Below are positions 3,001 to 52,177 of a stretch of 52,177 bases of DNA, in pieces (the stretch's first letter is position 1; every line of letters starts with the position of its first letter). The translations under genes and the position numbers were made by a program. This DNA comes from a virus. Taxonomy: Duplodnaviria > Heunggongvirae > Uroviricota > Caudoviricetes. Under the pieces are notes generated by a model that saw only the letters and a list, made by a program, of their open reading frames with translations, did not search any database and had not been told where the DNA came from. The stretch is taken from IMG/VR virus record IMGVR_UViG_2563366958_000018; one strand, given 5' to 3'.

Positions 3001-3009
3001 TCTCCTTAA
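1..3009 (+). CDS. tnpA: Tn3-family transposase TnpA (Tn1000/gamma-delta-like), 1002 aa
   Basis: Full-length ORF starting MPVDFLT; conserved Tn3-family TnpA blocks (RPGLMFD, GGGEVASADGMRFV, LSPLMHGHINMLGHY); stop codon lies inside the terminal IR as in Tn3-family elements. Confidence 0.9.
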   Translation: MPVDFLTSDQKQNYGCYAAEPNDVQLARYFHLDERDLAFINQRRGKHNRLGIALQLTTARFLGTFLTDLTQVLPGVQHFVAVQLNIHRPEVLSRYAERDTTLREHTALIKEYYGYHEFGDFPWSFRLKRLLYTRAWLSNERPGLMFDFATAWLLQNKVLLPGATTLVRLISEIRERANQRLWKKLAALPNKWQAAQVMELLVIPEGQRVSALEQLKKGPVTVSGPAFNEALERYIRLRSLEFSRLNFSGLPAIQLRNLARYAGMASVKYIARMPQQRKLAALTAFVKAQEITALDDAVDVLDMLILDIIREAKKTGQKKRLRTLKDLDQAALLLARACALLLDDNTDVPDLRQVIFKCVPKNRLAESVSKVNELARPQNNNFHDEMVEQYGRVKRFLPAVLRDLHFRAAPAGEHVLAAIHYLAELNGSKKRILDDAPEHIITGPWKRLVYDAEGRIQRAGYSLCLLERLQDALRRRDIWLENSDRWGDPREKLLQGEEWQTQRIPVCRALGHPVDGRKGVQQLAIQLDETWKAVASRFEKNAEVHICNEGKYPSLTISCLEKQEEPPSLLRLNNRIKQLLPPVDLTELLLEIDAQTGFTHEFAHVSESGARAQDLHISLCAVLMAEACNIGLEPLIKHNIPALTRHRLSWVKQNYLRAETLVSANARLVDFQSTLELAGRWGGGEVASADGMRFVTPVKTINSGSNRKYFGSGRGITWYNFVSDQYSGFHGIVVPGTLRDSIFVLEGLLEQQTGLNPVEIMTDTAGSSDIIFGLFWLLGYQFSPRLADAGEAVFWRVNKSANYGVLDKLARGYADLSKAESQWDEMMRTAGSLKLGTIHASELIRSLLKSSRPSGLAQAIMEVGRVNKTLYLLNYIDDEDYRRRILTQLNRGEGRHAVARAICYGQRGEIRKRYREGQEDQLGALGLVTNAVVLWNTLYMEEALSWMRRNGEEIIDEDIARLSPLMHGHINMLGHYTFTLPEDILKGELRALNLNINNELSP

Positions 3010-3042: not shown

Positions 3043-3843
3043 GATCTTTACGAGGTTGACGTAATAGTCATGGGGTAAGTTTGTCATGGTGATAGTTCCC
3101 TTAAAGGTTAAGGATACTCACCACCGTCTGGTTCCAATCATTGGGTGGTGAGACGTACAGGGTTGGAACTACCGGTCACCATGGAATCCGGCGAGTCTTA
3201 CGACTCCCCCGCACGCCCCACCATAATTTGGGTGTAGCAGTGCTTTACGCATAAAAAAACCGCTAACGCGGTATGCGCCATGATGATTATCGGGGTTCCA
3301 ATCCCGACCGTAGATTTTGCTACGGCTCGGAAAGTGTCCACCAATGGCGCATTCATGTCAATACGGCGGGATTTTAACAGAGACAACCACATAGCGTGGG
3401 TTTATTGGTAGGCAGAAACAAAAAAACCGCCCTATTGAGGACGGTTCTTTCGTGCTGATCGGATTCGCGGTCCTTTCAGCATAACGTCGTTGTATAAACA
3501 ACCACGCAAGCACAAGCAGCAAGTTAATTTTACCCAAAAGGTAATAATAGTCCACTATTATGCTTCAAAAAATTGTGGTTCTTGTTGTGCCTGCAAACTC
3601 ACAGATTGTGGGTAGGTTACTGATTTTGTGAAAATAAACGAGTTTTTTCGTTTAATTTCTTTCCTATTACTAATCTTAAAATAATCGTAAAATACCTGTG
3701 GACCTTCCCGCCGATTCGCACCCGGGCACCGACTTTAGGGGAGGATTCTCCGTTGCCGTACATGCAAGCACAAGCAGCCGTGCTTGCTCTCGCGTTGTTT
3801 TCGTCGGTGGGGATGCCGTGAAACGGCCTGTAAGGGCCATACA

Positions 3844-3966
3844 ATGAAAAAATACTGTATGTGTATTTTTATCGTTGTTACTGGGGCTTTGTTTACGCCA
3901 CATGGGGAGGGTTGGAAGATTACTGATAACGCTCTGAATGTGACGATAAACATTAGCAGCAAGTAG
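3844..3966 (+). CDS. Small hydrophobic ORF (40 aa, MKKYCMCIFIVVTGALF...), hypothetical
   Basis: ATG with weak upstream purine tract; single hydrophobic segment; followed directly by a strong hairpin plus T-run. Confidence 0.2.
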   Translation: MKKYCMCIFIVVTGALFTPHGEGWKITDNALNVTINISSK

Positions 3967-3971
3967 CGATT

Positions 3972-3995
3972 AGGCCCCTTCGGGGGCCTTTTTTA
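3972..3995 (+). terminator. Rho-independent terminator
   Basis: AGGCCCC-TTCG-GGGGCCT stem followed by TTTTTT. Confidence 0.5.
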
Positions 3996-4216: not shown

Positions 4217-4465
4217 TTACTTCTGGTTGTATTGAGCCTTGAGTAACTCAAAAGATTTTGTCAGCACTTCTTTCAATGACATATCCATTGAGCTGGCGAA
4301 CGTTTTGTACTCGCGTTTAAATTCAGGGTCGACGTTAAACGCCATTTGTGCCCCACCTGATTTGGTTCTGGTTGGCGTTTCAGTCGGGTCGAAAACCTGC
4401 GGTTGTTCGATCGATGGCGGTACGCCTTTGCTGTTCTTCTTTGGTGGTTTTGATGGTCCGGCCAT
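4217..4465 (-). CDS. ParG-like ribbon-helix-helix centromere-binding partition protein
   Basis: 82 aa, disordered basic N-terminus and C-terminal RHH-like segment (MAFNVDPEFKREYKTFASSMDMSLKEVLTKSFELLKAQ); directly downstream of ParA-like ATPase; strong RBS. Confidence 0.55.
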   Translation of the reverse strand: MAGPSKPPKKNSKGVPPSIEQPQVFDPTETPTRTKSGGAQMAFNVDPEFKREYKTFASSMDMSLKEVLTKSFELLKAQYNQK

Positions 4466-4477
4466 GTGTATCCCCTC

Positions 4478-4508
4478 TTATATAAATCTATAAAACTATA
4501 ATTATATA
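4478..4508. repeat. AT-rich palindromic repeat block (TATAAATCTATA / TATAATTATATA) between the two partition genes
   Basis: Same motif family as at 5187-5287 and five other intergenic sites. Confidence 0.5.
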
Positions 4509-5177
4509 TTACGCGGCAGTAGTCAGAGCCTCAAGCTGGTTGATAATCCCCTGAATAACGTCGTCTGCCTTTTTGCGTGGCGCAACGTATGAGCATTCAA
4601 TGAGGCTTAAGCCCTTATCCTGAGCTTTGCTCAGAGCTGGCTTGTGGGGAATGTACTTATCGACAACAAAGTATGGCGTATTAGCTAGGTACTCTTGGGC
4701 TTCAATGTAGTCGGCTTCGTTTTCAGCCGCGCCTGAGAACACCATGCAAATTTTCTTGATTGGCACACCCTTTTTAACGATGCCGTGAGCTGTGTTAACG
4801 GTGGTTTCTAGGTCATCGGTAGAGAATCTGGTTGGCAAAATAACCATATCCAGAAATTCAGAGAGCTTCGGTACTGATTCAGATGCGTAGGCACCGCCAT
4901 CGACGATAACCAGGTCGTATACTTCTGATTCGATGATTTTCTGGACTTGTGATGGCGTGCCGCACGGCTGCGCCGCGATTGCAGGTTCGATATTGTTGGC
5001 CATTCTGCGTTGTACCCAACGCGTTACCGTTCCGTTAAGCACATCCATATCGATCAGGCATACATTCCAGCCGGCCTTTGCATAAGCAACTGCTAAAGCA
5101 CGGGCAATTGTTGATTTGGTTACGCCGCCTTTTCCGTTGAAAATACCTACAGAGATAGTCATTTGTCGAGACTCCAT
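4509..5177 (-). CDS. ParA/ParF-type partition ATPase (small ParA)
   Basis: Deviant Walker A (GIFNGKGGVTKST) near N-terminus, 222 aa; alternative start at 5162 (MTISV...) has the better RBS. Confidence 0.85.
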   Translation of the reverse strand: MESRQMTISVGIFNGKGGVTKSTIARALAVAYAKAGWNVCLIDMDVLNGTVTRWVQRRMANNIEPAIAAQPCGTPSQVQKIIESEVYDLVIVDGGAYASESVPKLSEFLDMVILPTRFSTDDLETTVNTAHGIVKKGVPIKKICMVFSGAAENEADYIEAQEYLANTPYFVVDKYIPHKPALSKAQDKGLSLIECSYVAPRKKADDVIQGIINQLEALTTAA

Positions 5178-5186
5178 GTGTTTGGT

Positions 5187-5287
5187 TATATAATTCTATA
5201 AATCTATATTTATAGAACGAGGTAAGCATAACCAACTTTTTGGCGGATGAAAAGCGTTTTATATAATTATATAAATCTATAATCATG
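5187..5287. promoter_or_regulatory. Candidate centromere/operator region upstream of the partition operon (two AT-rich palindromic repeat blocks)
   Basis: TTATATAATTCTATAAATCTATATTTATAGA (5187-5217) and TTTATATAATTATATAAATCTATAATCATG (5258-5287) immediately upstream of the ParA start. Confidence 0.45.
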
Positions 5288-5312
5288 TAAGCGGGCGTTA
5301 GCCCGCTTTCAG

Positions 5313-5687
5313 TCAGAGGTCAGCTATCGTTGATATCAGTTGATTTGCTAGCTGTCGCTGTTTACGTGAGAGGGTGAGAGCAGCTTCTGAGCGGTCGCTA
5401 AGAGGGGTGTTTTCATCAAGAATCATGAGGCATACAGAAATAATAGCCCTGTTATATGCCATCAATGGCTGGCACAGCTTCGATATCGCTGGCACATCGT
5501 ATTGTAAGGCCGTTTTGAGGCAGACTTTTTGTTCTGATGCCAGATGAAGGATAGATTCTATCCAGTCGATATCTTTCTCATTATCAATGATTTGGCATAA
5601 CATACACTCAATCGCTATGTTCAACGCTTGGATTTCGATTCCAGCAGTGATCAGAGTTTCGTTTTTATTGGCTGTATGTAATTCCAT
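5313..5687 (-). CDS. Hypothetical protein (124 aa), first leftward gene downstream of cI
   Basis: ORF preceded by a CI-type operator palindrome at 5723-5737. Confidence 0.45.
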   Translation of the reverse strand: MELHTANKNETLITAGIEIQALNIAIECMLCQIIDNEKDIDWIESILHLASEQKVCLKTALQYDVPAISKLCQPLMAYNRAIISVCLMILDENTPLSDRSEAALTLSRKQRQLANQLISTIADL

Positions 5688-5779: not shown

Positions 5780-6436
5780 TCATAACCAGTTGACAACACT
5801 AACTACGCGGCCAAGAACTTTATAACGCTTAAATTCCTCGTTATTCAGATGCTTAGTGTTCATTTCAGCATCCCTTTCGGTTGACAGCATAACAGCATTG
5901 TCACCCGGTATGACTCTACAGTGCCTCAAAACAACCAGGCCATTTCTGTCTTCAAGGGCATAGATCCCCTCATGAATCTCTGTATCGTCTGTATTAATCA
6001 GGACTTGGGAGCCTGGGGATATTGTTGGTGACATTAACTCATCGTTGCTCTGGAGAACTGACAGAGACGATGGGTTGATGTTCTTGCTTCGTAGAATCTC
6101 CTGTTCTATCGCCAGCACTGGCTTTTCTCCGGCGTGCGATGCTATGTCATTTTTTATAGCTACAAGCCCAGGAATAACAGGAGCGTTAGTATTCTGGGGT
6201 GGGAACGGGTTATCTGTTAAGCACGCGATATAAGGCGCTGATGCTTTCAGGGCGTGCGCGATTTTCTTGATGGCAGGTATAGATGGTTGTCTTAATCCGG
6301 CCTCATAGTTCTGCAAGGTGCTTAAGCCTATTCCAGTGACTTGCTGGAGATCTCCGGCAGTCATGCCGGATTGTTTCCGTAGAGTCTGAATGCGCAGACC
6401 TATTTCTTTCTTGATGTTCTCGTCGTTGCTTTTCAT
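5780..6436 (-). CDS. cI: CI-like phage repressor (XRE-type HTH + S24/LexA-like autopeptidase domain)
   Basis: N-terminal HTH (LRKQSGMTAGDLQQVTGIGLSTLQNYEAG), Ala-Gly cleavage-site candidate, Ser (LMSPT) and Lys (KVLGRV) of the S24 dyad; divergent from the Cro-like gene. Confidence 0.85.
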   Translation of the reverse strand: MKSNDENIKKEIGLRIQTLRKQSGMTAGDLQQVTGIGLSTLQNYEAGLRQPSIPAIKKIAHALKASAPYIACLTDNPFPPQNTNAPVIPGLVAIKNDIASHAGEKPVLAIEQEILRSKNINPSSLSVLQSNDELMSPTISPGSQVLINTDDTEIHEGIYALEDRNGLVVLRHCRVIPGDNAVMLSTERDAEMNTKHLNNEEFKRYKVLGRVVSVVNWL

Positions 6437-6473
6437 GTCTCATCAATCGTGAATGGTGGGTTATTTATACATT

Positions 6474-6591
6474 ACCACATTTAGTGGTTTTCACATGGTA
6501 AGACGAGAGGTGGACCACAAATAGAAGGTTATTTTTTGTTTCGCCCATTGAAAAACTCACGATATGTGGTTTTAATACCACATATCGTGGT
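6474..6591. promoter_or_regulatory. OR-like operator region: three ACCAC-N5-GTGGT palindromes between cI and the Cro-like gene
   Basis: ACCACATTTAGTGGT (6474-6488), CTCACGATATGTGGT (6556-6570), ACCACATATCGTGGT (6577-6591). Confidence 0.6.
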
Positions 6592-6610
6592 TTTAACTGG
6601 AGTTCGTTAA

Positions 6611-9010: not shown

Positions 9011-9130
9011 AAAATCTATAAATATATAATTATAGATTTATATAAAAAGTGCTTTACAGGTGGGAAAAAATTTCCTATGGTTATACCCGAAACCGAGCGA
9101 TACCCGCCCTGGTTAAACCGGAGAAATCTG
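9011..9130 (+). promoter_or_regulatory. Conserved promoter/operator/leader cassette, copy 1
   Basis: AT-rich palindrome + TTTACA-N17-TATGGT + 50-nt leader ending GGAG-N8-ATG; near-identical copies at 15968-16081 and 48828-48941. Confidence 0.5.
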
Positions 9131-10198
9131 ATGAATAAACAAGTAATTATTTCTGACTGGATCAACAACCCTAACAGCCTGTTAAGCACTGATACTGGCT
9201 ACCTATTACGCCATGTTAATGGTCGTATGGTCAAAAGCGATGAGCACGAAACCTTTTTCTTTGTTGAAGACGATGGGCGTATCTATGAGGATGGTTACTC
9301 TTATGAAGCCCAAACTGGTTGTATCCCTGCGGAGCTGGTGGATGTAACAGAAGATCTGCGCAAAGCATGGCTTGAACAGCAGCAGCGCGGAGATGATTAC
9401 GTAAACACCTATCAGGAACGCCAGAACGCGCGTCTTGCCCGATATATTGCTCGTGCAGAAAAAGCCAGAAAAGAAGGTGCGGTAGCGCATAAGCGAGCGC
9501 ATGACCTGTTGGATGTGATCCCGTTAGGCCAGCCGATTTTAGTTGACCATTATAGCGCGAAAGGCCATCGCCGCCGTTTGTCTAAAGCTGATGCGTTATT
9601 CAGAAAAGCGTTTGTTGAATGCGAAAGTAAAGCATCACACTACGAGAGCAAAGCCGCAGGTGTTGGTCGTAATGGAATTTCGTCTGATGATCCTGATGCG
9701 CTATTTAAGTTGCTTCGTAAGCTGCAAGGCTGCATGAAGTCACACGTCAAAATGAAGGCCGCAAATAAGGCCATTCGCAAATACAAAAAAGACCAAATAC
9801 AGCAGCTTTCTGCATTAATCGATCTCAGGTTTACAGAAAGCGAAGCCAAAGAGTTACTGGCCGGAGATTTCTGTGGGCGCATCGGATTCCCTTCATACGC
9901 ACTGAGCAACAATAACGCCGAAATCAAACGACTACAGAGCCGTATTAAGGAGCTTGAATCGGTCAAGTCTGTAACAGGAGCACAGCGCGAAGAATACGAC
10001 GGCTTTTCTATGGAGATAGATCCAGAGGATAACCGCATCCTGTTTTATTTCCCTGGCAAACCAGAGGCAAACATTCGTTCGCTGCTTAAATCACGCGCCT
10101 TTAAGTGGAGTCCAACCCGTAATGCATGGGTTCGCAAGATTACTCCAAACGCCCTGGCTGATGCCCGATATCTGAAAGAATCGCTATTGAAAGCCTGA
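9131..10198 (+). CDS. DUF3560-like protein (355 aa)
   Basis: GQPILVDHYSAKGHRRR and C-terminal FKWSP...NAWVR segments resemble DUF3560; start taken at the ATG after the conserved leader rather than the in-frame ATG at 9077. Confidence 0.55.
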   Translation: MNKQVIISDWINNPNSLLSTDTGYLLRHVNGRMVKSDEHETFFFVEDDGRIYEDGYSYEAQTGCIPAELVDVTEDLRKAWLEQQQRGDDYVNTYQERQNARLARYIARAEKARKEGAVAHKRAHDLLDVIPLGQPILVDHYSAKGHRRRLSKADALFRKAFVECESKASHYESKAAGVGRNGISSDDPDALFKLLRKLQGCMKSHVKMKAANKAIRKYKKDQIQQLSALIDLRFTESEAKELLAGDFCGRIGFPSYALSNNNAEIKRLQSRIKELESVKSVTGAQREEYDGFSMEIDPEDNRILFYFPGKPEANIRSLLKSRAFKWSPTRNAWVRKITPNALADARYLKESLLKA

Positions 10199-10275
10199 CA
10201 GTAAGCCTACGGCGGGATGTCTCCCGCCGTATATAGAATTATATATTTATATAAATGTATAAGGACGCCTCGACA

Positions 10276-10557
10276 ATGAAACGCAAAATTATTAACCCCC
10301 AAGATGTGATTAATTTCCTGACCGATCACCCATGTTCAAAAGTGGACGTAATCGCGGAGCACATTGGTGTGTCGCAGAACTCTATGCGTTGCAGACTGAG
10401 AAGCATGGTTGCCGAAGGACAGATAACAACCAGGAAAATAAATGGTTGCCTGTACTACTCCGCTAAACCGGAATTGCCATTTGGCATGAATCCTAACTCC
10501 ATGTTGTTTAACACCTTATTAGCCAAAGTTAAGCCGTTGAGAGGGGCTGTGGCATGA
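10276..10557 (+). CDS. Winged-helix DNA-binding protein (93 aa)
   Basis: HTH-like segment VDVIAEHIGVSQNSMRCRLRSMVAEGQI; RBS AAGGA upstream. Confidence 0.45.
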   Translation: MKRKIINPQDVINFLTDHPCSKVDVIAEHIGVSQNSMRCRLRSMVAEGQITTRKINGCLYYSAKPELPFGMNPNSMLFNTLLAKVKPLRGAVA

Positions 10558-14707: not shown

Positions 14708-14831
14708 TACCGCCTGTGATTGGGTAAAGCCCATCTACCTGACTGATCACGACATCGATGTTATGGACCGCCAGACAAAGAAAGATATTCTGGCTCATAA
14801 CAGGGCATGGGAAATCAACTGCCGAAAGTAA
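14622..14831 (+). CDS. o-spanin (Rz1-like lipoprotein), overlapping the i-spanin 3' end in another frame
   Basis: Signal peptide with lipobox LIAS-C, Pro-rich mature part. Confidence 0.6.
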   Translation: MYSRVLTIWLMTMLIASCGSRGSVPVVVDTACDWVKPIYLTDHDIDVMDRQTKKDILAHNRAWEINCRK

Positions 14832-15000
14832 TATATATTTCTATAATTATATAAATATATAGTTACAACATTCTATGCGCTTTTCTCATGGGCGCACGCA
14901 TCAACCATGTTTGTCTGATATGCCGCCGCGCCCAAAAATCCTGAATTTATTGGCTGGGATTTTCGTGCGCGGCGCCACACCAGACAAACAAATCAAATAT

Positions 15001-15076
15001 GGCCCCTTAGCTTAGTGGTTAGAGCAGGCGACTCATAATCGCACGGTCATCGGTTCAAATCCGGTAGGGGCCACCA
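15001..15076 (+). tRNA. tRNA with CAU anticodon, most similar to tRNA-Ile2 (ileX-type, lysidine-dependent AUA decoder); could also be a Met tRNA
   Basis: Cloverleaf folds: acceptor GGCCCCT/AGGGGCC, anticodon loop CUCAUAA, T-loop TTCAAAT, 3' CCA encoded. Confidence 0.85.
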
Positions 15077-15383: not shown

Positions 15384-15971
15384 ATGGAGGCAATTGCATT
15401 GTTTAATCTGATTTATGCAGATCCCCCCTGGGAATACAAAGATAAGTGTAAGGATGGGAATCGTGGAGCTGGTTTTAAGTATCCAACGATGAAAGCTGAG
15501 GATATTGCTCGTATTCCTGTCTGGCAGCTTGCTAATCCTGAATCGTGTTTGTTGGCCATGTGGTGGGTTCCGACTCAGCCAGAAGAAGCGTTGCTGGTGG
15601 TGAAAGCATGGGGATTCAGGCTTATGACCATGAAGGGCTTCACATGGAACAAATGTGGTAGCCGACAACCAGATAAGCTGGTGATGGGGATGGGGCATAT
15701 GACTCGTGCAAACAGTGAAGATTGCTTGTTTGCGGTAAAAGGCAAATTGCCGACCCGCCTTGATGCGGGGATCATTCAGTCGTTTACATCGCCTCGTCTG
15801 GAGCATTCTCGGAAGCCTGATGTGGTTCGTGACAAGCTGGTAAGGCTGTTAGGTGATGTTCCTCGTATTGAGCTGTTTGCTCGCGGTGATTTACCTGATG
15901 GTTGGCATGGCTGGGGCAACCAGTGCAATGGAGGTATCCAGTTGCATGATGCTCTCTGGCAAGTGGCATAG
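15384..15971 (+). CDS. MT-A70-family N6-adenine DNA methyltransferase (orphan)
   Basis: Catalytic DPPW motif (IYADPPWEY), 195 aa; no adjacent restriction endonuclease. Confidence 0.8.
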   Translation: MEAIALFNLIYADPPWEYKDKCKDGNRGAGFKYPTMKAEDIARIPVWQLANPESCLLAMWWVPTQPEEALLVVKAWGFRLMTMKGFTWNKCGSRQPDKLVMGMGHMTRANSEDCLFAVKGKLPTRLDAGIIQSFTSPRLEHSRKPDVVRDKLVRLLGDVPRIELFARGDLPDGWHGWGNQCNGGIQLHDALWQVA

Positions 15972-16081
15972 AATTATATAATTATAGATTTATATAAAAA
16001 GTGCTTTACAGGTGGGAAAAAATTTCCTATGGTTATACCCGAAACCGAGCGATACCCGCCCTGGTTAAACCGGAGAAATCT
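15968..16081 (+). promoter_or_regulatory. Conserved promoter/operator/leader cassette, copy 2
   Basis: Identical to copy 1 over ~100 bp. Confidence 0.5.
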
Positions 16082-16352
16082 GATGAAAGTACAAGACCGT
16101 GAAGTAGTAAAAAACCTCCTGCAATACCTGACCTCAAAAAACCTGACGGGCAGCGTTGAGTTCCGTGAAGCGTTAAAACATTTCAACGTCACTACGGTTT
16201 ATCGTTGGGAAAACAAACATTCTGAAAGACCGTATGTGGTGGATGTTTTTGCGCCTGATATTGAGTGCGGTTTTGAGCGTCATTCGTTCAAGGAGAAACA
16301 TTCTGCTGATTTTTTTTGTGAGGTTGTATGTGCGGCAGGAGATGATGAGTGA
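16082..16352 (+). CDS. Hypothetical protein (90 aa)
   Basis: First ORF after cassette copy 2. Confidence 0.45.
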
Positions 16353-32539: not shown

Positions 32540-35332
32540 ATGGCCAGCAATAAGAACTTTAAGCTGGCTTTTGAAATTGGCGGCAAAGTTGCCGCCTCTC
32601 TCCCCAAAAGTTTTACTACAGCTAATCAGGCTGTTGCTAAATTAAATGCAGAGCTTGCTGGATTAACGAAAGAACATGGGGAAATTCAAAAGCTACAATC
32701 TGTAAAAGTAAAGGTTGGACAGACTGCCCTCGAATATCATAAAGCTGCCGCTCGCGTTGAAGAGTTACAGAAGCAAATAAAAAACACGGCCAATCCAACC
32801 AGAGCGATGCTTCGTGACTTTGAGAAGGCAAAAACACATTCATCAAATTTACGAGCATCACTACGTTCTCAGCGTGAAGAACTGGCCGCTTTAAAGTCTG
32901 CCTATCAGGGAGCTGATACATCTGCCAGAGCTTTGGCCTCAAGAGAGAAAGAGCTTAAAGCCAGCATTGATCGTAATCGTGAGGCTCAGGCCCGTAGCGT
33001 TGAGCAGGTTAACCGCTACAGAACGGCTTTGGCTTTAGCCAGAGCAAATGTTCAGCAAGTGAAAAAACAGCAGGAGGAACTTAACCGGGCATTAGAAAAA
33101 CAACGTATTGATAAAATTAACAGCTATAAAAATGCGTTGGCTGAAGCACGGAAAAATGTTCTTGCAGTAAAACGTGCTCAGGAGGAGTTAAACCGCGCGT
33201 TGGAAAGGCAGCGTGAATTGAAGCGAGAGCATCTTGGTGAGGCAAAGAGTCAACTTGTAAGGTCAGGATTACAAACTGGTGCTGTAGCGGCTGGTGCATT
33301 TGCTGCTGCTAACAATGCAGCAAATTTCAATCGTGAAAACAAAATGATTGGTCTTACGGCAGATATGAAGCCGGAAGAAGTTCAGGCGATGGGGCAGGCG
33401 ATGCTTGTTACCGGAACGGCTACCAACCAGTTTGCATCTGATATTCAGGCCGCTCAGGGTTTTCTCGTCGCTGCTGGGCAGGATTATAAAGAGGCTCAGG
33501 CGAATCTACTAACTATTGGGCGAACAGCTACAGCTACTGGCTCTGATATCCTCGATGTCTCGAAAGCATCATTTACATTAAGTGACTCATTGAAGATTGA
33601 TCCATCTCAAATGAAGTCTGCAATGGGGATTCTGGTTCAGGCAGGGAAAGAGGGGAACTTTGAATTTAAAGATATGGCCAAAAATCTTCCTGTGCTTGGT
33701 GCTCAGTTCCAGGCATTAAAAATGGGAGGTAAAGAAGCAGCCGCGACGATGGGTGCAGCTTTGCAGATAGCTCGCAAGGGGGCTGCAACTTCGGATGAGG
33801 CTGCTAATAATATGAACAACTTTTTGGCAAAAATACTTTCCCCTGAAACACTAAAAAAAGCAAAGAAAAATTTCGGTGTAGATTTATATAAAATTGTTAC
33901 AACAGCGCAGAAAAAAGGGAAGAATCCATTCGAAGCTGCAATGCATTCTGTCATGAAAATGACTAAGAACGGAGATCAGAAGTTACTTGGTGAACTATTT
34001 GGCGATATGCAGGTTCAGAACTTTGTTCGTCCGATGATTCAAAACTGGAAGGAATACCAGAGAATCAAAGCAACATCTCTTGGAGCTGGAAGTGCTGTTA
34101 TTGACCGCGATTTTGCCAACATAACGAAAGATAATGCGGAGCGATTGAAACAATTACGTATTCAGGCTAGCAATGCATCATTAAGTTTTGGTCAGGCCTT
34201 GCAACCTGCTTTGAATGCCGCGCTTAGTGTTTTGGTTCCGCTGATTACAAAAATTAGTGAATTTGTAGCTAACAACCCCAATTTTGTGTCTCAGATAGTG
34301 ATGGCGGCAGGTGCGTTTCTAACCATGAAAAGTGTGGTTATAGCGTGTAGGGTAGCTATGCTGGCTTTATCTGTAGCGACAAAGCTAACACCCTTCGGGT
34401 GGATTCAGATGGCTATATCTGCGCTGGTTGCCGCAGGAATATTGCTCTATCAGAATTGGGATAAGATCAGAGATTATGCTGTCAGAGTTTGGCCTTCTGT
34501 TAAGGAATATACAGTTAAATCATTTGAGGCTATAAAAAACTTTATCTTAAACTTTGACCTCAATGGATGGATTATATCTATGTTTGGTAAAGCATGGGAT
34601 TATCTTTCCAACATAAACTGGAGTTCGGCAGGAGTAAGAATTTACAGTACATTAATTAGTGCTTTTAAATGGATGTCTCCGCTTCCGTTCTTAATTAAAG
34701 CATTTAAAATTACAACAAATTACCTTTCTGGCATTAACTGGAGCGAAACAGGAAAGAAAATCATAGATACACTGGTATCTGTTTTTATGCGTTTTTCACC
34801 AGTTGGACTCTTTATAAGAGCATTCCAATCTGTAACGACTTATTTATCTGGAATAAACTGGAGTGAGTCAGGCGCAAAAATAATTGAGACGTTAATCACT
34901 GGGATAAAATCAAAAGCAAATGCTTTAATTAATGAAGTGAAAGGCGTTTTTTCTTCTGTACGTGAGTATTTACCGTTCTCTGACGCGAAAAAAGGTCCAT
35001 TCTCACAGCTAACAAAGTCAGGTGGTGCAATAATGACTACTCTGGCATCAGGTGTTAGCAGGAATAACAGCTTACAGAATGCAATAGCAAGCAAGTTCGG
35101 GCAATCAAATTTATCACCTCACGGGATATCTGCCGCTGGGACTTCTGGACCTCGCCAGAACGTTAACGCTGTGACTGGTGGAATAACCTATTCACCTGTA
35201 ATCAATCTTCCGGCTGGTTCACCAAAGGAAACTGAGGCGGCAGCTAAAAGAGCATTAGATGCGGGATATTCTGATTTTGAGAAGAAATTGAGTGCTCATA
35301 TGTTCCAACAACGGAGATTAAGTTTTGGATGA
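32540..35332 (+). CDS. Tail tape measure protein
   Basis: 930 aa, coiled-coil N-terminal half, hydrophobic central segment. Confidence 0.85.
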   Translation: MASNKNFKLAFEIGGKVAASLPKSFTTANQAVAKLNAELAGLTKEHGEIQKLQSVKVKVGQTALEYHKAAARVEELQKQIKNTANPTRAMLRDFEKAKTHSSNLRASLRSQREELAALKSAYQGADTSARALASREKELKASIDRNREAQARSVEQVNRYRTALALARANVQQVKKQQEELNRALEKQRIDKINSYKNALAEARKNVLAVKRAQEELNRALERQRELKREHLGEAKSQLVRSGLQTGAVAAGAFAAANNAANFNRENKMIGLTADMKPEEVQAMGQAMLVTGTATNQFASDIQAAQGFLVAAGQDYKEAQANLLTIGRTATATGSDILDVSKASFTLSDSLKIDPSQMKSAMGILVQAGKEGNFEFKDMAKNLPVLGAQFQALKMGGKEAAATMGAALQIARKGAATSDEAANNMNNFLAKILSPETLKKAKKNFGVDLYKIVTTAQKKGKNPFEAAMHSVMKMTKNGDQKLLGELFGDMQVQNFVRPMIQNWKEYQRIKATSLGAGSAVIDRDFANITKDNAERLKQLRIQASNASLSFGQALQPALNAALSVLVPLITKISEFVANNPNFVSQIVMAAGAFLTMKSVVIACRVAMLALSVATKLTPFGWIQMAISALVAAGILLYQNWDKIRDYAVRVWPSVKEYTVKSFEAIKNFILNFDLNGWIISMFGKAWDYLSNINWSSAGVRIYSTLISAFKWMSPLPFLIKAFKITTNYLSGINWSETGKKIIDTLVSVFMRFSPVGLFIRAFQSVTTYLSGINWSESGAKIIETLITGIKSKANALINEVKGVFSSVREYLPFSDAKKGPFSQLTKSGGAIMTTLASGVSRNNSLQNAIASKFGQSNLSPHGISAAGTSGPRQNVNAVTGGITYSPVINLPAGSPKETEAAAKRALDAGYSDFEKKLSAHMFQQRRLSFG

Positions 35333-43599: not shown

Positions 43600-44472
<873 letters not shown>

Positions 44473-44642: not shown

Positions 44643-45222
<580 letters not shown>

Positions 45223-45688: not shown

Positions 45689-46669
45689 ATGGAAACAAAA
45701 AGCCCGCAGATAAATCTGCGGGCTTCTTGCGACATCCACGGAAAACCAACAACAACAATCCATGGGCGCCTCGACAACTCCCATTATACGTTGGTTTTCC
45801 GTGGACGCAAGAGCGAACATATGGATAGACCAATGCCGTCTCTACGTTCAGCTTACGTTTGTAATTTGTCGCCGGAGTTCCAGCCTCCAAAGCACCATAC
45901 GCACAAGCTGCCGCTGGTGTTATCTGATGCTTTACAGCGCATTAATGGGCGTGATCTTACGTGTGAGGTTGCGTTCTACGTTAATCAACCGTCAGAGCGG
46001 AAGCGCCGGATAAACGAGCATCGTCGTCGGGCGATTAATGCTGTGATCGCTGCGATTTTGCACCATGTAAACATCATTTCTAAGCGGGTTCTGGCTAGTG
46101 CTGAGGCGTTGGCTGATTTTTGCGGCCTGTCTACCGTATCCGAAGCTGGGAACAAGTCTATAACGCGCTGTACAAGGGCGTTGTCGCAACTGAAAGCGTT
46201 AGGTTTTATTGATTATGAACGTCGCTGGGATCGGGTGAATAAACAGTATTGGCCAGCGAAAATAGAGATTCGTGATCAACTGCTGGAAACCGTTGGTATT
46301 ACTGAACAAGCATGGAGACGTGCGGTTAGCCAGAAACTTAATTACTTCAATGCGAAGAATAGCGAACGGCTTAAAAAAGCGATAACGGAGGCTGATTATA
46401 AGCGTATTGTTATTCAGGAGCAGATGGAGAATGTATGGCGTCAGAGGAAGACGGCCAGAGAGATAAAGGCAAAACAGAAAGCAGCGGAGAGAGCTGCGCG
46501 TCTTGTTCGGGAAAAGGGAGAGGCCGAACTTCGTCATCAAATCACCAGAGAGGTTAGTCAGGAATTTGCTGATGGCATGTATCCTGGTGCTGACCTTGCA
46601 TATTTACGATCCCTCGTTGAGCAGCGTTATAACAGGTTAAGAAAGACCTGGAAATCACTCCAACATTAA
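45689..46669 (+). CDS. repA: Plasmid replication initiator RepA (IncFII RepA1 / I-complex RepZ family)
   Basis: Conserved RRRAINAVIAAILHH and CGLSTVSEAGNKSITRCTRALSQLKALGFIDY blocks align with IncFII RepA1 as recalled; likely true start at ATG 45821 (282 aa), with 45689-45820 being leader. Confidence 0.85.
   Translation: METKSPQINLRASCDIHGKPTTTIHGRLDNSHYTLVFRGRKSEHMDRPMPSLRSAYVCNLSPEFQPPKHHTHKLPLVLSDALQRINGRDLTCEVAFYVNQPSERKRRINEHRRRAINAVIAAILHHVNIISKRVLASAEALADFCGLSTVSEAGNKSITRCTRALSQLKALGFIDYERRWDRVNKQYWPAKIEIRDQLLETVGITEQAWRRAVSQKLNYFNAKNSERLKKAITEADYKRIVIQEQMENVWRQRKTAREIKAKQKAAERAARLVREKGEAELRHQITREVSQEFADGMYPGADLAYLRSLVEQRYNRLRKTWKSLQH
45699..45810 (+). promoter_or_regulatory. repA leader with two strong hairpins (candidate antisense-RNA target / translational control region)
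   Basis: AGCCCGCAG-ATAAAT-CTGCGGGCT (45701-45723) and CCACGGAAAACCAAC...GTTGGTTTTCCGTGG (15-bp stem, 45736-45804). Confidence 0.35.
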
Positions 46670-47300
46670 CCCACCTGAATGATGAATCCGGTTTTACCGG
46701 AGGATTATCTACGTCGCAATAAAATATCTGTTCAAAAAACAATCTAAATTAATTTTCTCTAAACCTGAACACAGCAAAAATATCGCCTTTACAGGCATCG
46801 GCTAATAAAGTTATCCACAGTTCTGATATGTATATGCAAATGGTTTTTTATAATAGATGCACTAAACAAATAAATGCAAAATCACTTTCTTTTATTAAGA
46901 CTTTCTTTATTTAACTTACGCAGGCTTTGCCTGTGAATATGTTCGCCCTTGCAGCGAGCTAAAGCTCGCGCCGGTTCGAGTCGCTACGCTCAAATATACC
47001 TCCTCCGGCACTTGCCGGAGGCATGGAGCAGCCTGATCATCCTTTTCGAAACGGCACGTTTCGAACTATACAAAATCAATTTATATAAGGCCGAAATAAG
47101 GCCTACGGCCGGGCTTTGCAGGAGGAAGGGGCGAGCCTTATCAATAAACGTCGATAAATACGCACACAGTAGCCATCAGAACGCGATAAAATGTAAGAAA
47201 CATCATTTCCTATTAGACATAGAAAACTTGTCTTATACGCAATGTAGTAAATTTCTATTGCCACATAGGAAAAGATTTCCTACCATCGTAGATATAATAA
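46670..47300. other. Probable replication origin region downstream of repA (AT-rich, DnaA box)
   Basis: TTATCCACA at 46811-46819; AT-rich tracts and GC-rich hairpins (for example CGAAACGGCACGTTTCG). Confidence 0.4.
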
Positions 47301-47312
47301 ATGGAGATGGTT

Positions 47313-47600
47313 ATGGATAAAGATACTGTTTTAAAAATGTTGAATCCGGCTTGTTTAAAAAAAGCGGATGAATGGGAATCTCCTACATGTGGAGAAGTTC
47401 GGGCAGTCATTGGCCTGACCGGAATGAGCGGCTCGCAGTTAGCCAAAAAACTAGGCTTAAAAGATAGTCGCAATGTTCGCAACTGGCAGATGTTAAAGGA
47501 GTCCACATCCAGATCCAGCATTCCGTATGCAGCCTGGGCGCTGCTGTGTTACTTCGCTGGGTTAGGGTTAATCTTCATTGATAACAAAACAGATGTTTGA
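47313..47600 (+). CDS. Hypothetical HTH-like protein (95 aa)
   Basis: GGAG RBS; segment GEVRAVIGLTGMSGSQLAKKLGL resembles an HTH. Confidence 0.4.
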   Translation: MDKDTVLKMLNPACLKKADEWESPTCGEVRAVIGLTGMSGSQLAKKLGLKDSRNVRNWQMLKESTSRSSIPYAAWALLCYFAGLGLIFIDNKTDV

Positions 47601-47887: not shown

Positions 47888-48131
47888 GGCTTTCGCGTCG
47901 AAAATGAGGCGAAACTGAAAACGAGATTTCATTAACAAATAAGCAACATAAAAAACGGTGGAAAACGCCCAGGAAAACATGATCTTTTGAGCGGATTTTT
48001 TAGATCCGACAATGAACGGTGATCCGGTGGTGCCGATAACGTCCATTATGTTAAATAGCCCCGTTTTTCTTGAAATTATAACTCACAGGTTATATAGTTA
48101 GTGATATAAACTACAGGTTATAGGATTGAGC

Positions 48132-48479
48132 ATGTGGACGGTACTTTTTAGCCAGCGATTTGACGACTGGCTAAATGAGCAAGAAGACGCTCTTCAGGAA
48201 AAGGTTTTGGCTGATTTGAAAAAGCTACAGGTTTACGGACCTGAGTTACCCAGGCCATATGCCGATACCGTAAAAGGTTCTCGGTACAAAAATATGAAAG
48301 AGCTTCGCGTTCAGTTTTCTGGCCGTCCGATAAGAGCCTTTTATGCGTTCGATCCGATTCGCCGGGCCATCGTTCTTTGTGCAGGAGACAAAAGTAACGA
48401 TAAGCGGTTTTATGAAAAACTGGTGCGTATAGCTGAGGATGAGTTTGCAGCACATCTGAACACACTGGAGAGCAAGTAA
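48132..48479 (+). CDS. RelE/ParE-superfamily toxin (HigB / Gp49-like)
   Basis: 115 aa, toxin-first gene order, TAATG coupling to a downstream HTH antitoxin. Confidence 0.6.
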   Translation: MWTVLFSQRFDDWLNEQEDALQEKVLADLKKLQVYGPELPRPYADTVKGSRYKNMKELRVQFSGRPIRAFYAFDPIRRAIVLCAGDKSNDKRFYEKLVRIAEDEFAAHLNTLESK

Positions 48480-48778
48480 TGAGAACATTAGATGAGGCGA
48501 TTGCCAGCCGTTCACCTGAAAGCCAGGCGCGAATTAAAGAAATGGCAGATGAGATGATTCTTGAGGTCGGCTTGCAGATGATGCGTGAAGAACTCCAGTT
48601 ATCACAAAAACAGGTTGCTGAGGCGATGGGTATAAGCCAGCCAGCAGTAACAAAGCTGGAGCAGCGCGGAAATGATTTAAAGCTGGCGACATTAAAGCGT
48701 TACGTTGAAGCTATGGGAGGCAAATTAAGCCTGGATGTTGAGCTTCCCACAGGAAAACGAATAGCGTTTAACATCTGA
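48479..48778 (+). CDS. HigA-like XRE-family HTH antitoxin
   Basis: HTH (LQLSQKQVAEAMGISQPAVTKLE) in C-terminal half; coupled to upstream toxin. Confidence 0.6.
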   Translation: MRTLDEAIASRSPESQARIKEMADEMILEVGLQMMREELQLSQKQVAEAMGISQPAVTKLEQRGNDLKLATLKRYVEAMGGKLSLDVELPTGKRIAFNI

Positions 48779-48793
48779 TCAGAACGAATGATA

Positions 48794-48820
48794 AGCCCCT
48801 GTTGCAAAGGGGCTTTTTTG
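48794..48820 (+). terminator. Rho-independent terminator
   Basis: AGCCCCT-GTTGCAA-AGGGGCT then TTTTTT. Confidence 0.45.
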
Positions 48821-48827
48821 CGCTCAT

Positions 48828-48941
48828 AGAATTATATAATTATAGATTTATATAAAAAGTGCTTTACAGGTGGGAAAAAATTTCCTAAGGTTATACCCGA
48901 AACCGAGCGATACCCGCCCTGGTTAAACCGGAGATAACCCG
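48828..48941 (+). promoter_or_regulatory. Conserved promoter/operator/leader cassette, copy 3
   Basis: Identical to copies 1 and 2 except a T-to-A change (TAAGG vs TATGG) and a divergent last 10 nt. Confidence 0.5.
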
Positions 48942-49322
48942 ATGAGCATGATTAAAATCCGCAAAAACGCTTTCCTTAAAATTCAAACTATCCTGGCTGG
49001 TTCTGTTGGCGTGATTTGCCGTTCTTCTTCAAGCCGCATCGATGACGGCTACGATGATGAGTATCGTTTGTCCTCGTGCGATGAGGCTTTAACCTGGCTG
49101 AAGGAGAATCAGGAACGTGCCCAGGTATATCTGGAAACAGAGAACGGCAATCAGATGCTCCGTATTAGCGGTCGTTATGGATTTGAAACCACATTCATGG
49201 CCTATTTTAATCAGGCTTACTTTGACAAGGAGTTGGCCTGGTACACTGATCGCATGAGCAAAAGCGAGCCAGCCCCGATTACACCGCCGAACGATAAACC
49301 ATTTTTATTCCTCGTTAAGTAA
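48942..49322 (+). CDS. Hypothetical protein (126 aa)
   Basis: First ORF after cassette copy 3. Confidence 0.45.
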   Translation: MSMIKIRKNAFLKIQTILAGSVGVICRSSSSRIDDGYDDEYRLSSCDEALTWLKENQERAQVYLETENGNQMLRISGRYGFETTFMAYFNQAYFDKELAWYTDRMSKSEPAPITPPNDKPFLFLVK

Positions 49323-51034: not shown

Positions 51035-52177
51035 TTATGGTCTGCTTTTCTGTGCCAGCTTATCAGCACATGTTTTTATCAGATCCTGTAGTGTCTTGGC
51101 TGGCAGGTTTGCATCCAGTACGCTGAGTATGCTGTTGTGATCAGCTTGGTCGACTACTTTGCCTGTCGGTGGTAGTAGCTTGAGCTGAGGATTCAGGTTT
51201 TCGTCAAAGCTGATAAGTGCTCTGGCGTTTCTGAGCAGATCAAGAAGTAAGGCTGATATCACATTTTCCTGAGTCATTGCTGGCAGATTTAGCGCCGCTT
51301 TGGTTTTCCCTGTTGCCTTGTCAAACGCCTTGATTAGTTCCTTCCTGTAGTTCGGTTCCGTTAATAGCCGATTATGCTCTGTTGCCGCGCGGATAATCGT
51401 TTTTTCCTGGTACAGTCGTTTAGCCAGATCACGCTCGTACTGTGTTTTTAACACGCTGCTGATAGCGTTAAAGGCTTCAATGTAGGCCAGCTTGATATCT
51501 TTCACGCTTGGACCGTCGATGCTCTCCATGAGCAAGGTAAATCCGTCTTTTGTCATGCGATAGATTGTTATTTCGCGGTCGCTTCCTTCCAGCGGTCGTT
51601 GCTCTTTAAAGAAGTGACGCGCCGCAGCCGTGCGAGGAATGCGTAGCGCATCGATGGCCATAACGATGGAATTGTTTGTGGTGCTGAATGCTTGGGCAAC
51701 ATCGGCTGAGGTTGTGAGTGGCTCGTTGTTGCACACTTTAATGTAAAACATCGGTTTGGCGTTGAGCGTATCGACAACCTCACGAGCATTGTTTGGCGAG
51801 ACGGTTACGGTCGCGGCCGTTTGCGCGTTCTGGCTGAAATAGCAGTCTTCCAGCCGTTCGAATACATCCCACGCCTGATCGGTTTCGAGCATTTTGGCGT
51901 GACGTGCAGCCCCGCGTTCTGTCCAGAGAATGAGGGAGCGGGCATTTTTACCAACTAACCCGATTGTTTCAGGTCTGTTCTTGAACTCGCGTAATTCGTT
52001 TTTTTCAATTTTAAAGTAATGCTTTCCGGCTATGAATCGCGTCGTGTTGTTCAGAAAGTTATCAGAAATGTTTTTGATTTTTGTTCCGTATAACTGCGCC
52101 AGAAGTTCAGTTGTAATAACGGGGATCTGGTTATGCAAGATAGGCTGTAGGGTGTTAACGGTCGGAAGCGTTTTCAT
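51035..52177 (-). CDS. Phage antirepressor (AntA/ORF6N-type N-terminal domain, Rha-like central region)
   Basis: 380 aa; N-terminal ITTELLAQLYGTKIKNISDNFLNN...RFIAGKHYF; start codon is the last three bases of the window so the true start may lie beyond it. Confidence 0.7.
   Translation of the reverse strand: MKTLPTVNTLQPILHNQIPVITTELLAQLYGTKIKNISDNFLNNTTRFIAGKHYFKIEKNELREFKNRPETIGLVGKNARSLILWTERGAARHAKMLETDQAWDVFERLEDCYFSQNAQTAATVTVSPNNAREVVDTLNAKPMFYIKVCNNEPLTTSADVAQAFSTTNNSIVMAIDALRIPRTAAARHFFKEQRPLEGSDREITIYRMTKDGFTLLMESIDGPSVKDIKLAYIEAFNAISSVLKTQYERDLAKRLYQEKTIIRAATEHNRLLTEPNYRKELIKAFDKATGKTKAALNLPAMTQENVISALLLDLLRNARALISFDENLNPQLKLLPPTGKVVDQADHNSILSVLDANLPAKTLQDLIKTCADKLAQKSRP

Follow-up and report, generated by a model that had tools for sequence, protein, structure and literature searches.

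A probable KorC-type promoter cassette present in three copies on a tailed phage-plasmid, with putative partition-protein arrays where IncP-1 plasmids have the KorA operator

Three cassettes and the genes behind them

The window, a stretch of 52,177 nucleotides to which all positions below refer unless another record is named, is the genome of a tailed phage-plasmid. It encodes a CI-type repressor, a parA gene followed by a gene for an 82-aa protein, RNAs resembling C4, isrK and ryfA, and a set of head and contractile-tail genes. Toward its right end lies an IncFII-type repA (45689-46669), followed by two small ORFs and by a HigB/HigA-like pair (48126-48479 and 48479-48778), whose operon ends in a terminator hairpin with a T-run at about 48795..48819 (+). 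Directly 3' of this terminator is the sequence considered here, a cassette (48827..48941, +) that runs from an array of short repeats up to the base before the ATG of orf126 (48942..49322, +), which encodes a 126-aa protein assigned to phrog_8090. The region is 98% identical to that of the Yersinia phages vB_YpM_39/41/44.

The same cassette occurs at two other places. A repeat search of the window returned a single long direct-repeat family with three members (9017-9143, 15969-16095 and 48827-48953), and the three copies, when aligned, share a core of some 115 nt that does not vary, between flanks that are unrelated. Copy 1 (9017..9130, +) precedes a DUF3560 gene (9131-10198, +), with its ATG at 9131, and copy 2 (15969..16082, +) precedes orf88 (16083-16352, +), a gene of 88/89 aa with its ATG at 16083, so that each cassette, including copy 3 in front of orf126, ends at the start codon of a different gene. 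The sole internal difference is TATGG in copies 1 and 2 versus TAAGG in copy 3 (A at 48888). The 3' ends differ as well, being GGAGAAATCTGATG in copies 1 and 2 and GGAGATAACCCGATG in copy 3, so that copy 3 has another spacer from the ribosome binding site to the ATG. A preliminary description had noted these near-identical copies, the single-base change, the distinct pre-ATG end of copy 3 and its location beyond the replicon and toxin-antitoxin module and the HigBA terminator, and the repeat search, the alignment and the gene order bear it out on all of these points. The cassette is widespread: 67 plasmid records contain it, in 63 of these at least one copy is near full length, and nearly all have three copies. 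A scan of a genome collection with the leader pattern gave no matches.

What are the cassettes for? The preliminary description saw them as marks of module boundaries. This is not the best reading of their position, since promoter/operator units that serve separate short transcription units will naturally come after terminators. The arrangement recalls that of prophage morons, which are likewise short, independent transcription units with a terminator before and after each; unlike morons, however, all the units here share one standard regulatory cassette and are apparently repressed, not constitutive, in the resident state. It is likely that each cassette consists of a strong promoter, repressor sites and a conserved mRNA leader, and that it is akin by descent to the KorC-controlled klcA and kleA promoters of IncP-1 plasmids. 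On this reading, the cassette is a KorC-type promoter cassette of the kil-kor kind, residing in a phage-plasmid. A literature search for papers dealing with the closest phages, or with KorC in a phage-plasmid, found none.

Promoter, putative operator and leader

The cassette has the pattern of a sigma-70 promoter, TTTACA-17-TA(T/A)GGT. In copy 3, the -35 hexamer TTTACA lies at 48863..48868 (+) and the -10 hexamer TAAGGT at 48886..48891 (+), with the polymorphic base, 48888, at its third position; copies 1 and 2 have TATGGT instead. A promoter scan called the copy 1 equivalent (-35 at 9053-9058) with 9 of 12 matches, and copy 3 fell one match under the threshold. The position of the hexamer is conserved across lineages. 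When 15 homologous cassettes from six lineages were aligned, every one had TAnnnT at the -10, and 14 had a -35-like hexamer 17 bp upstream of it (TTTACA, TTGCAG, TTGCTA, TTGTCA or TTGCAA in the homologues from Salmonella, K. aerogenes, Serratia and Vibrio; TTGACA and TTGCGC in two cassettes of the IncP-1 plasmid pYKAM033). In the fifteenth, in front of klcA of an IncP-1 plasmid (L027), the -35 position is taken by a KorA operator. The -10 itself appears as TATGGT, TAAGGT, TAGTAT, TAATAT, TAAATT, TAAAAT or TATAAT, with T1, A2 and T6 invariant and position 3 being T, A or G.

These natural variants support the earlier proposal that TATGGT is the -10, which it very probably is. They do not support the companion claim that the T-to-A change removes the -10 candidate, for TAAGGT retains T1, A2 and T6, and position 3 is the variable one. 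Judged against its homologues, TAAGGT appears to be an acceptable version of the -10, and the change a tolerated polymorphism. Nor is the change peculiar to copy 3: in a census of 17 related viral contigs and the phage record, TATGGT and TAAGGT were found in four and three copies at locus 1, in four and two at locus 2, and in two and five at locus 3. The ending of copy 3, GGAGATAACCCGATG, is likewise the commoner one at locus 2 of the relatives, and one Serratia cassette has the identical ending. The polymorphic base is the least constrained position of the -10 and lies one base beyond the operator described below, and it moves among the copies by recombination; by itself, the change is of little consequence.

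The T-to-A change also removes an upstream ATG. Copies 1 and 2 have it within TATGG, in frame with the downstream ORF, because of which the listed ORFs begin at 9077 and 16029, as opposed to 48942 in copy 3. The true starts are 9131, 16083 and 48942, each 7-8 nt past GGAG. It would be most improbable that the upstream ATG is used, either for an extended protein or for a regulatory leader peptide, making copy 3 a loss-of-function variant. Such a reading has in its favor the in-frame translation of copies 1 and 2, which yields MVIPETERYPPWLNRRNLM, but this ATG lies within the -10 and has no ribosome binding site, while the conserved GGAG stands in front of the downstream ATG. At all three loci, there are many relatives that have lost it. 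A 1-nt length difference shifts it out of frame in Salmonella and K. aerogenes, to end at a TGA (in K. aerogenes, as read by eye from the sequence), and the homologues of Serratia, Vibrio and IncP-1 do not have it. Hence the 19 codons are no feature of the proteins, which agrees with the view of the preliminary description that they are not a required N-terminal extension.

Between the two promoter hexamers lies a 17-bp palindrome, TGGGAA-AAAAT-TTCCTA in copy 3 (48871..48887, +), which occupies the promoter spacer and overlaps the first two bases of the -10; its counterparts are at 9061-9077 in copy 1 and 16013-16029 in copy 2 (both +). The type sequence is TAGGAA-N5-TTCCTA, which in Salmonella forms the perfect palindrome TAGGAA-AATAT-TTCCTA and in Vibrio becomes TAGGAC-GAAAA-GTCCTA. 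Across the 15 cassettes, 97.8% of the cells are paired, symmetry is kept by double changes and two positions covary, figures that represent few independent events, since the sequences are related and copies within a genome are homogenized. There are four sites matching GGAA-N5-TTCCTA in the window, compared to 0.16 expected by chance: the three cassettes and the promoter of an ORF at 47301..47600 (+). This promoter (47258..47286, +; TTGCCA, 17 bp, TACCAT) carries its operator, TAGGAAAAGATTTCCTA, at 47266-47282 in the spacer, an arrangement that is repeated in Salmonella, Serratia, Enterobacter and K. aerogenes.

The 99-aa product of that ORF is a homologue of KorC and the candidate repressor for the palindrome. 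It has 52% identity to a protein of IncP-1 contigs, P0084 (E 1e-25 in the pairwise comparison and 1e-14 in the database search), which occupies the korC position, the gene order there being klcA, klcB, P0084, kleE, korA, incC, korB. In Vibrio, the homologous gene is located inside the operon of the first cassette. On the IncP-1 contigs that carry P0084, klcA is preceded by TAGGGCATTATGCCCTA, and the IncP-1 counterparts of the cassette operator are TAGGGCATTATGCCCTA and TAGGGCATTTTGCCCTA, which, going by these contigs, would represent the KorC operator of RK2. The 17-bp palindrome is most likely bound by the KorC homologue. Here, as for the arrays discussed below, proteins are assigned to sites on the basis of homology, position and co-variation.

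The kinship with IncP-1 extends well beyond the operator. The cassette aligns with the upstream regions of kleA and klcA from AAAGTGCTTGACA through the operator and a hairpin to ACCGGAGA..CCGATG, with 27 invariant columns between the -35 and the ATG and an identity of 48-69% to the IncP-1 copies. The kleA upstream region of pYKAM033, AAAGTGCTTGACAGGCTAGGGCATTTTGCCCTAATATAGCACTTGAAGGCCGGGCATTCCGCCCAGGTCGATACCGGAGAAAGTCCGATG, aligns over a stretch that begins ahead of the -35 and runs up to the ATG. BLAST with the IncP-1 klcA region matches the upstream regions of both klcA and kleA across IncP-1 plasmids, which therefore have their own multi-copy version. Both systems have a strong sigma-70 promoter, in IncP-1 those of klcA, kleA and kleC of the RK2/RP4 kil-kor regulon, with a 17-bp TAGG-N9-CCTA palindrome that lies in the spacer and overlaps the -10; a homologous leader with the hairpin and ACCGGAGA..CCGATG; several copies per replicon, placed before small accessory genes; and a KorC homologue on the same replicon. 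On the other hand, the cassettes here reside on a tailed phage-plasmid, whose RepA is of the IncFII type, and not on a conjugative IncP-1 plasmid; their operator arms are TAGGAA/TTCCTA instead of TAGGGC/GCCCTA, and the genes that they drive are not related to klcA or kle. The KorA operator GTTTAGCTAAAC, which in the IncP-1 copies stands beside the promoter and adjoins the -35 (for its consensus, see PMC2665229), is absent from the cassettes of the window, where four 8-bp units of the type found at the par operon take its place.

KorC-type repressors are found in other settings as well. KorC of the IncU plasmid RA3 is a small repressor that acts at several promoters of one plasmid (PMC7414963), and on the IncL plasmid pOXA-48 the promoter of the korC operon has a KorC site in the stretch that separates its -35 from its -10 (PMC12365149). 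The present system resembles the first in its multiple promoters and the second in the position of the operator, but RA3 and pOXA-48 are conjugative, and their target genes and co-regulators differ.

Downstream of the -10 comes the leader, which consists of a conserved GAA, a bulged hairpin and AAACCGGAG, followed by the ATG. The GAA, about 7 nt past the -10, is the likely start site. From there, the hairpin would begin a few bases into a leader of about 50 nt, with the GGAG and the ATG after it. In copy 3, the hairpin, AACCGAGCGATACCCGCCCTGGTT, lies at 48901..48924 (+), with an outer stem AACC/GGTT and an inner stem GCG/CGC, and the GGAG, read from the sequence and invariant in the alignment, at 48930..48933 (+). 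The outer stem alternates among the homologues between GGCC/GGCC and AACC/GGTT. About 85-90.5% of the cells in the 15 cassettes are paired, versus 32-44% once the partners have been displaced by 1-3 columns, and 25 cells are changed on both sides, compared to 10.7 +/- 2.4 in shuffles, none of 500 of which reached 25, the cassettes again being related sequences. The hairpin is predicted in every lineage that was folded, and the individual folds are only modestly better than those of shuffled sequences (z -1.1 to -2.4). Stem-loops at the 5' end are known in general to protect mRNA from that end. The hairpin here would start 2-4 nt from the predicted 5' end, which suggests such a protective role, and a role in protein binding is no less plausible.

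Two other ways in which the leader might be regulated were considered and discarded. The C4 antisense RNA (3141-3228) has no convincing complementarity to it by eye. Pairing of the leader's 5' end with the ribosome binding site was seen in one Serratia cassette (S2, L025 29413-29527) and one Vibrio cassette (V2, L020 35580-35660), in which the bases just past the -10 can pair over 6-8 bp with the ribosome-binding region; it is not conserved among copies, and these bases are probably upstream of the start.

Since palindrome and hairpin can both be folded as RNA, and both show compensatory changes, one might instead suppose that transcription starts upstream, in the A+T-rich region, where TATAAT-like hexamers occur within the E. 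coli arrays, and that the two elements are stem-loops of a cis-regulatory leader acting by antitermination or protein binding. This is improbable. The -35-like hexamer stands at exactly 17 bp before TAnnnT in all but one of the aligned cassettes, the arrays of Serratia and Vibrio are poor as promoter material, and the palindrome belongs to the family of the IncP-1 KorC operator, with a KorC homologue encoded in the window. No Rfam family matched in the cassette, either at the gathering threshold or at E up to 1.

The repeat arrays and a putative partition protein

In front of the promoter, copy 3 begins with four 8-bp units, TAGAATTA TATAATTA TAGATTTA TATAAAAA (48827..48858, +). Runs of at least three such units are found at only eight sites in the window, all of them intergenic, and at none in 20 shuffles. 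Three of the sites are in the cassettes. Two lie on both sides of the parA promoter (5186..5289, -; TTTTCA, 17 bp, TATGCT), at 5186-5216 and 5258-5289, and one (4478..4508, -) directly precedes the ribosome binding site of the gene for the 82-aa protein. The remaining two are directly before a MarR-like gene (10232..10260, +; gene at 10276-10557) and upstream of a gene for tRNA-Met (CAT) at 15001-15076, about 140 nt from the array at 14830..14865. The relatives L021 and L022, as well as those of Serratia and Vibrio, have the arrays in the same places and with other unit sequences: whereas the window has TAGATTTA, the unit of L021 and Serratia is TTAAAGAA, that of L022 is TACATAAA and that of Vibrio is GAAATAAA. 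At 4700-4812 of L022, a umuD-like gene is preceded by an array, a promoter and then TACTGTATATATAACCAGTA, which resembles a LexA box, and the array is there paired with a different second operator.

The protein that would bind these arrays is presumably the 82-aa product (4217..4465, -) encoded directly after the gene for a ParA-type ATPase with ParA domains (4509..5177, -). Its AF2 model has a disordered N-terminal tail followed by a strand-helix-helix (pLDDT about 90), and the top PDB fold matches are all ribbon-helix-helix proteins (CopG, CdbA, StnY, ParG and Arc), albeit with poor E-values because the domain is small. RHH_10 matches 18 of the 49 family members; the protein itself has no Pfam match and is not in the Pfam ParG family (PF09274), while ParG is weakly touched by one of the 49 relatives and the family profile gives an E of 0.29 against PDB chain 1p94. 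The combination of weak sequence matches and a fold match points to a ribbon-helix-helix protein that may be called ParG-like. Its predicted DNA-reading strand varies by lineage (MAFNVD, MNFNVD, LTFNID, LNFKVS), and the array units vary likewise. A distant ParG-like match on Y. pestis pTP33 was set aside, as it comes with neither arrays nor cassette.

At both its operator and the centromere, ParG of TP228 recognizes tetramer boxes that are set 4 bp apart, thus with an 8-bp period, one dimer per box (PMC3130281). Like this ParG (which acts at the OF operator and the parH centromere), the present protein is small, has a ribbon-helix-helix fold and a disordered tail at its N terminus, and its gene comes after that of a ParA-type ATPase; the par promoter likewise has short boxes arrayed with a period of 8 bp (PMC3130281). 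It differs in falling outside the Pfam ParG family and in the sequence of the boxes. By this analogy, the arrays would be sites for the ParG-like protein.

A further parallel is omega of pSM19035, a regulator and centromere binder that has repeat arrays at several unrelated promoters. Unlike in ParG and omega, the arrays are here distributed over eight sites on a 52-kb genome and combined with a KorC-type operator, and the binding to them is a prediction.

Could the arrays simply be UP elements, curved DNA, or sites of the H-NS or IHF type that strengthen or silence the promoters, with the KorC-type operator as the sole specific control? In E. coli they are 100% A+T, and their location at about -37 to -68 is in the range of UP elements. 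However, this is unlikely given their strict 8-bp period and the lineage-specific units (TAGATTTA, TTAAAGAA, GAAATAAA and TACATAAA). In every lineage examined, moreover, the arrays flank the parA promoter and directly precede the parG-like gene, and their geometry fits that of the ParG operator and centromere arrays (PMC3130281). The preferred reading thus remains that of arrays coated by the ParG-like protein, which by analogy would suggest that a partition protein took over the co-repressor role that KorA has in IncP-1.

The spacer of the E. coli-type parA promoter holds a palindrome, CCAAAAAGTTGG (5220-5250, -), that is unlike the cassette operator, and control of par by the KorC-like protein is therefore not obvious here. 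In Vibrio, the parA promoter does carry the KorC-type operator of the cassette (L020 30920-30934).

A proposed entry circuit and its evolutionary setting

Copies within one genome are 93-99% identical in E. coli and 95% in Salmonella; the values for Serratia and Vibrio are 83-94% and 84-88%, compared to 50-70% between lineages. As the copies that share a genome are in every case closer to one another than are the equivalent copies of different lineages, they must have been homogenized by recombination. This, together with the finding that in relatives both the TATGG/TAAGG variants and those of the ending are shuffled between the three loci, could mean that the 115-nt stretches are mainly a sequence for recombination and module exchange, serving as crossover points, and that any promoter activity is incidental. 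One relative, L010, has a different gene immediately past its locus-2 cassette (1842-2010), starting MKEQDRKVMRISF instead of MKVQDREVVKNLL, a change of gene content right at the cassette edge that fits recombination within cassettes. Nevertheless, such a primary role is improbable: what has been conserved across lineages at about 50% identity are the -35, the symmetric operator, TAnnnT, the compensated hairpin and the spacing of GGAG and ATG, and the core of the cassette is homologous to IncP-1 promoters that have been studied experimentally (PMC7314908). Recombination among the copies is best seen as a consequence of repetition, not as the cause of conservation.

How, then, would the cassettes operate? 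In RP4, KorA and KorC both repress klcA, which is the gene most strongly induced upon entry into a new cell, by about 120-220-fold, a case of zygotic induction (PMC7314908). By extension, the KorC homologue would occupy the spacer and the -10 and so shut the three cassette promoters, and the ParG-like protein (4465..4217, -), coating the arrays just upstream of the -35, would add to the repression. In an established plasmid-prophage, both proteins would hold the three promoters low. On newly entered DNA, neither would be present, and the promoters would fire briefly, in the manner of the zygotic induction of RP4 klcA, producing transcripts with the hairpin leader of about 50 nt. This model, of a sigma-70 promoter under a KorC-type operator and ParG-coated arrays that is repressed when the element is established and bursts upon entry, is probably correct as a whole. 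If the promoters do fire on entry, the three downstream genes are, it is proposed, entry or establishment genes, which makes DUF3560, orf88 and orf126 candidates for such functions. The product of orf126 gave a good model (pLDDT 83), with no PDB fold match (TM about 0.25) and no match in Pfam or NCBIfam.

The circuit appears to be separate from the lysis-lysogeny switch. Several CCACA-N-TGTGG palindromes lie at about 6450-6600, between the gene for the CI-type repressor (5780-6436, -) and the rightward operon, and one more lies at about 5735, before an ORF at 5687..5313; these are probably the CI operators. They are absent from the cassettes, for which reason control of the cassettes by the CI-type repressor was rejected.

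What this would mean is that the logic of a conjugative broad-host-range plasmid, with its KorC operators, steady-state repression and burst upon entry, is linked to a widespread family of phage-plasmids of about 48 kb in E. coli, Salmonella, Klebsiella and Yersinia, some of which, including the window, carry a beta-lactamase gene. Within the family, the -10, the operator and the hairpin also vary naturally, and these variants lend themselves to testing. A broader proposal, made tentatively and perhaps somewhat more likely to fail than to hold in full, is that the tailed phage-plasmids of Enterobacterales and Vibrio possess a kil-kor-like entry switch through common descent with IncP-1. In them, the ParG-like arrays would have replaced the KorA operator, and the protein would act as a global regulator through dispersed sites, about eight in number, which may double as centromeres. 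The 5' hairpin shared with klcA and kleA would be an undescribed post-transcriptional or stabilizing element, and the whole would deliver a timed burst of establishment or anti-defense genes after infection.

Some other features of the window may be mentioned. Three RNAs score above the Rfam gathering threshold: C4 antisense RNA (3141-3228, -), isrK (3253-3326, -) and ryfA (3698-3994, +). They suggest a P1-like control region of the immI type and a possible small toxin RNA beside the par operon. A Tn3-family transposase is encoded at 1-3009 (+; DDE_Tnp_Tn3, E 3e-149), and a class A beta-lactamase and a truncated resolvase at 43600-44460 (-) and 44643-44975 (-). If the window is circular, the transposase gene lies between the C4 and isrK RNAs and an ORF6N/Rha antirepressor-like gene (51035-52177, -), which it may separate from its control region. 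Lastly, three 42-nt repeats with a spacing of 120 nt (34600-34881, +) lie inside a 930-aa tail ORF (32540-35332) and probably represent a repeated protein motif.
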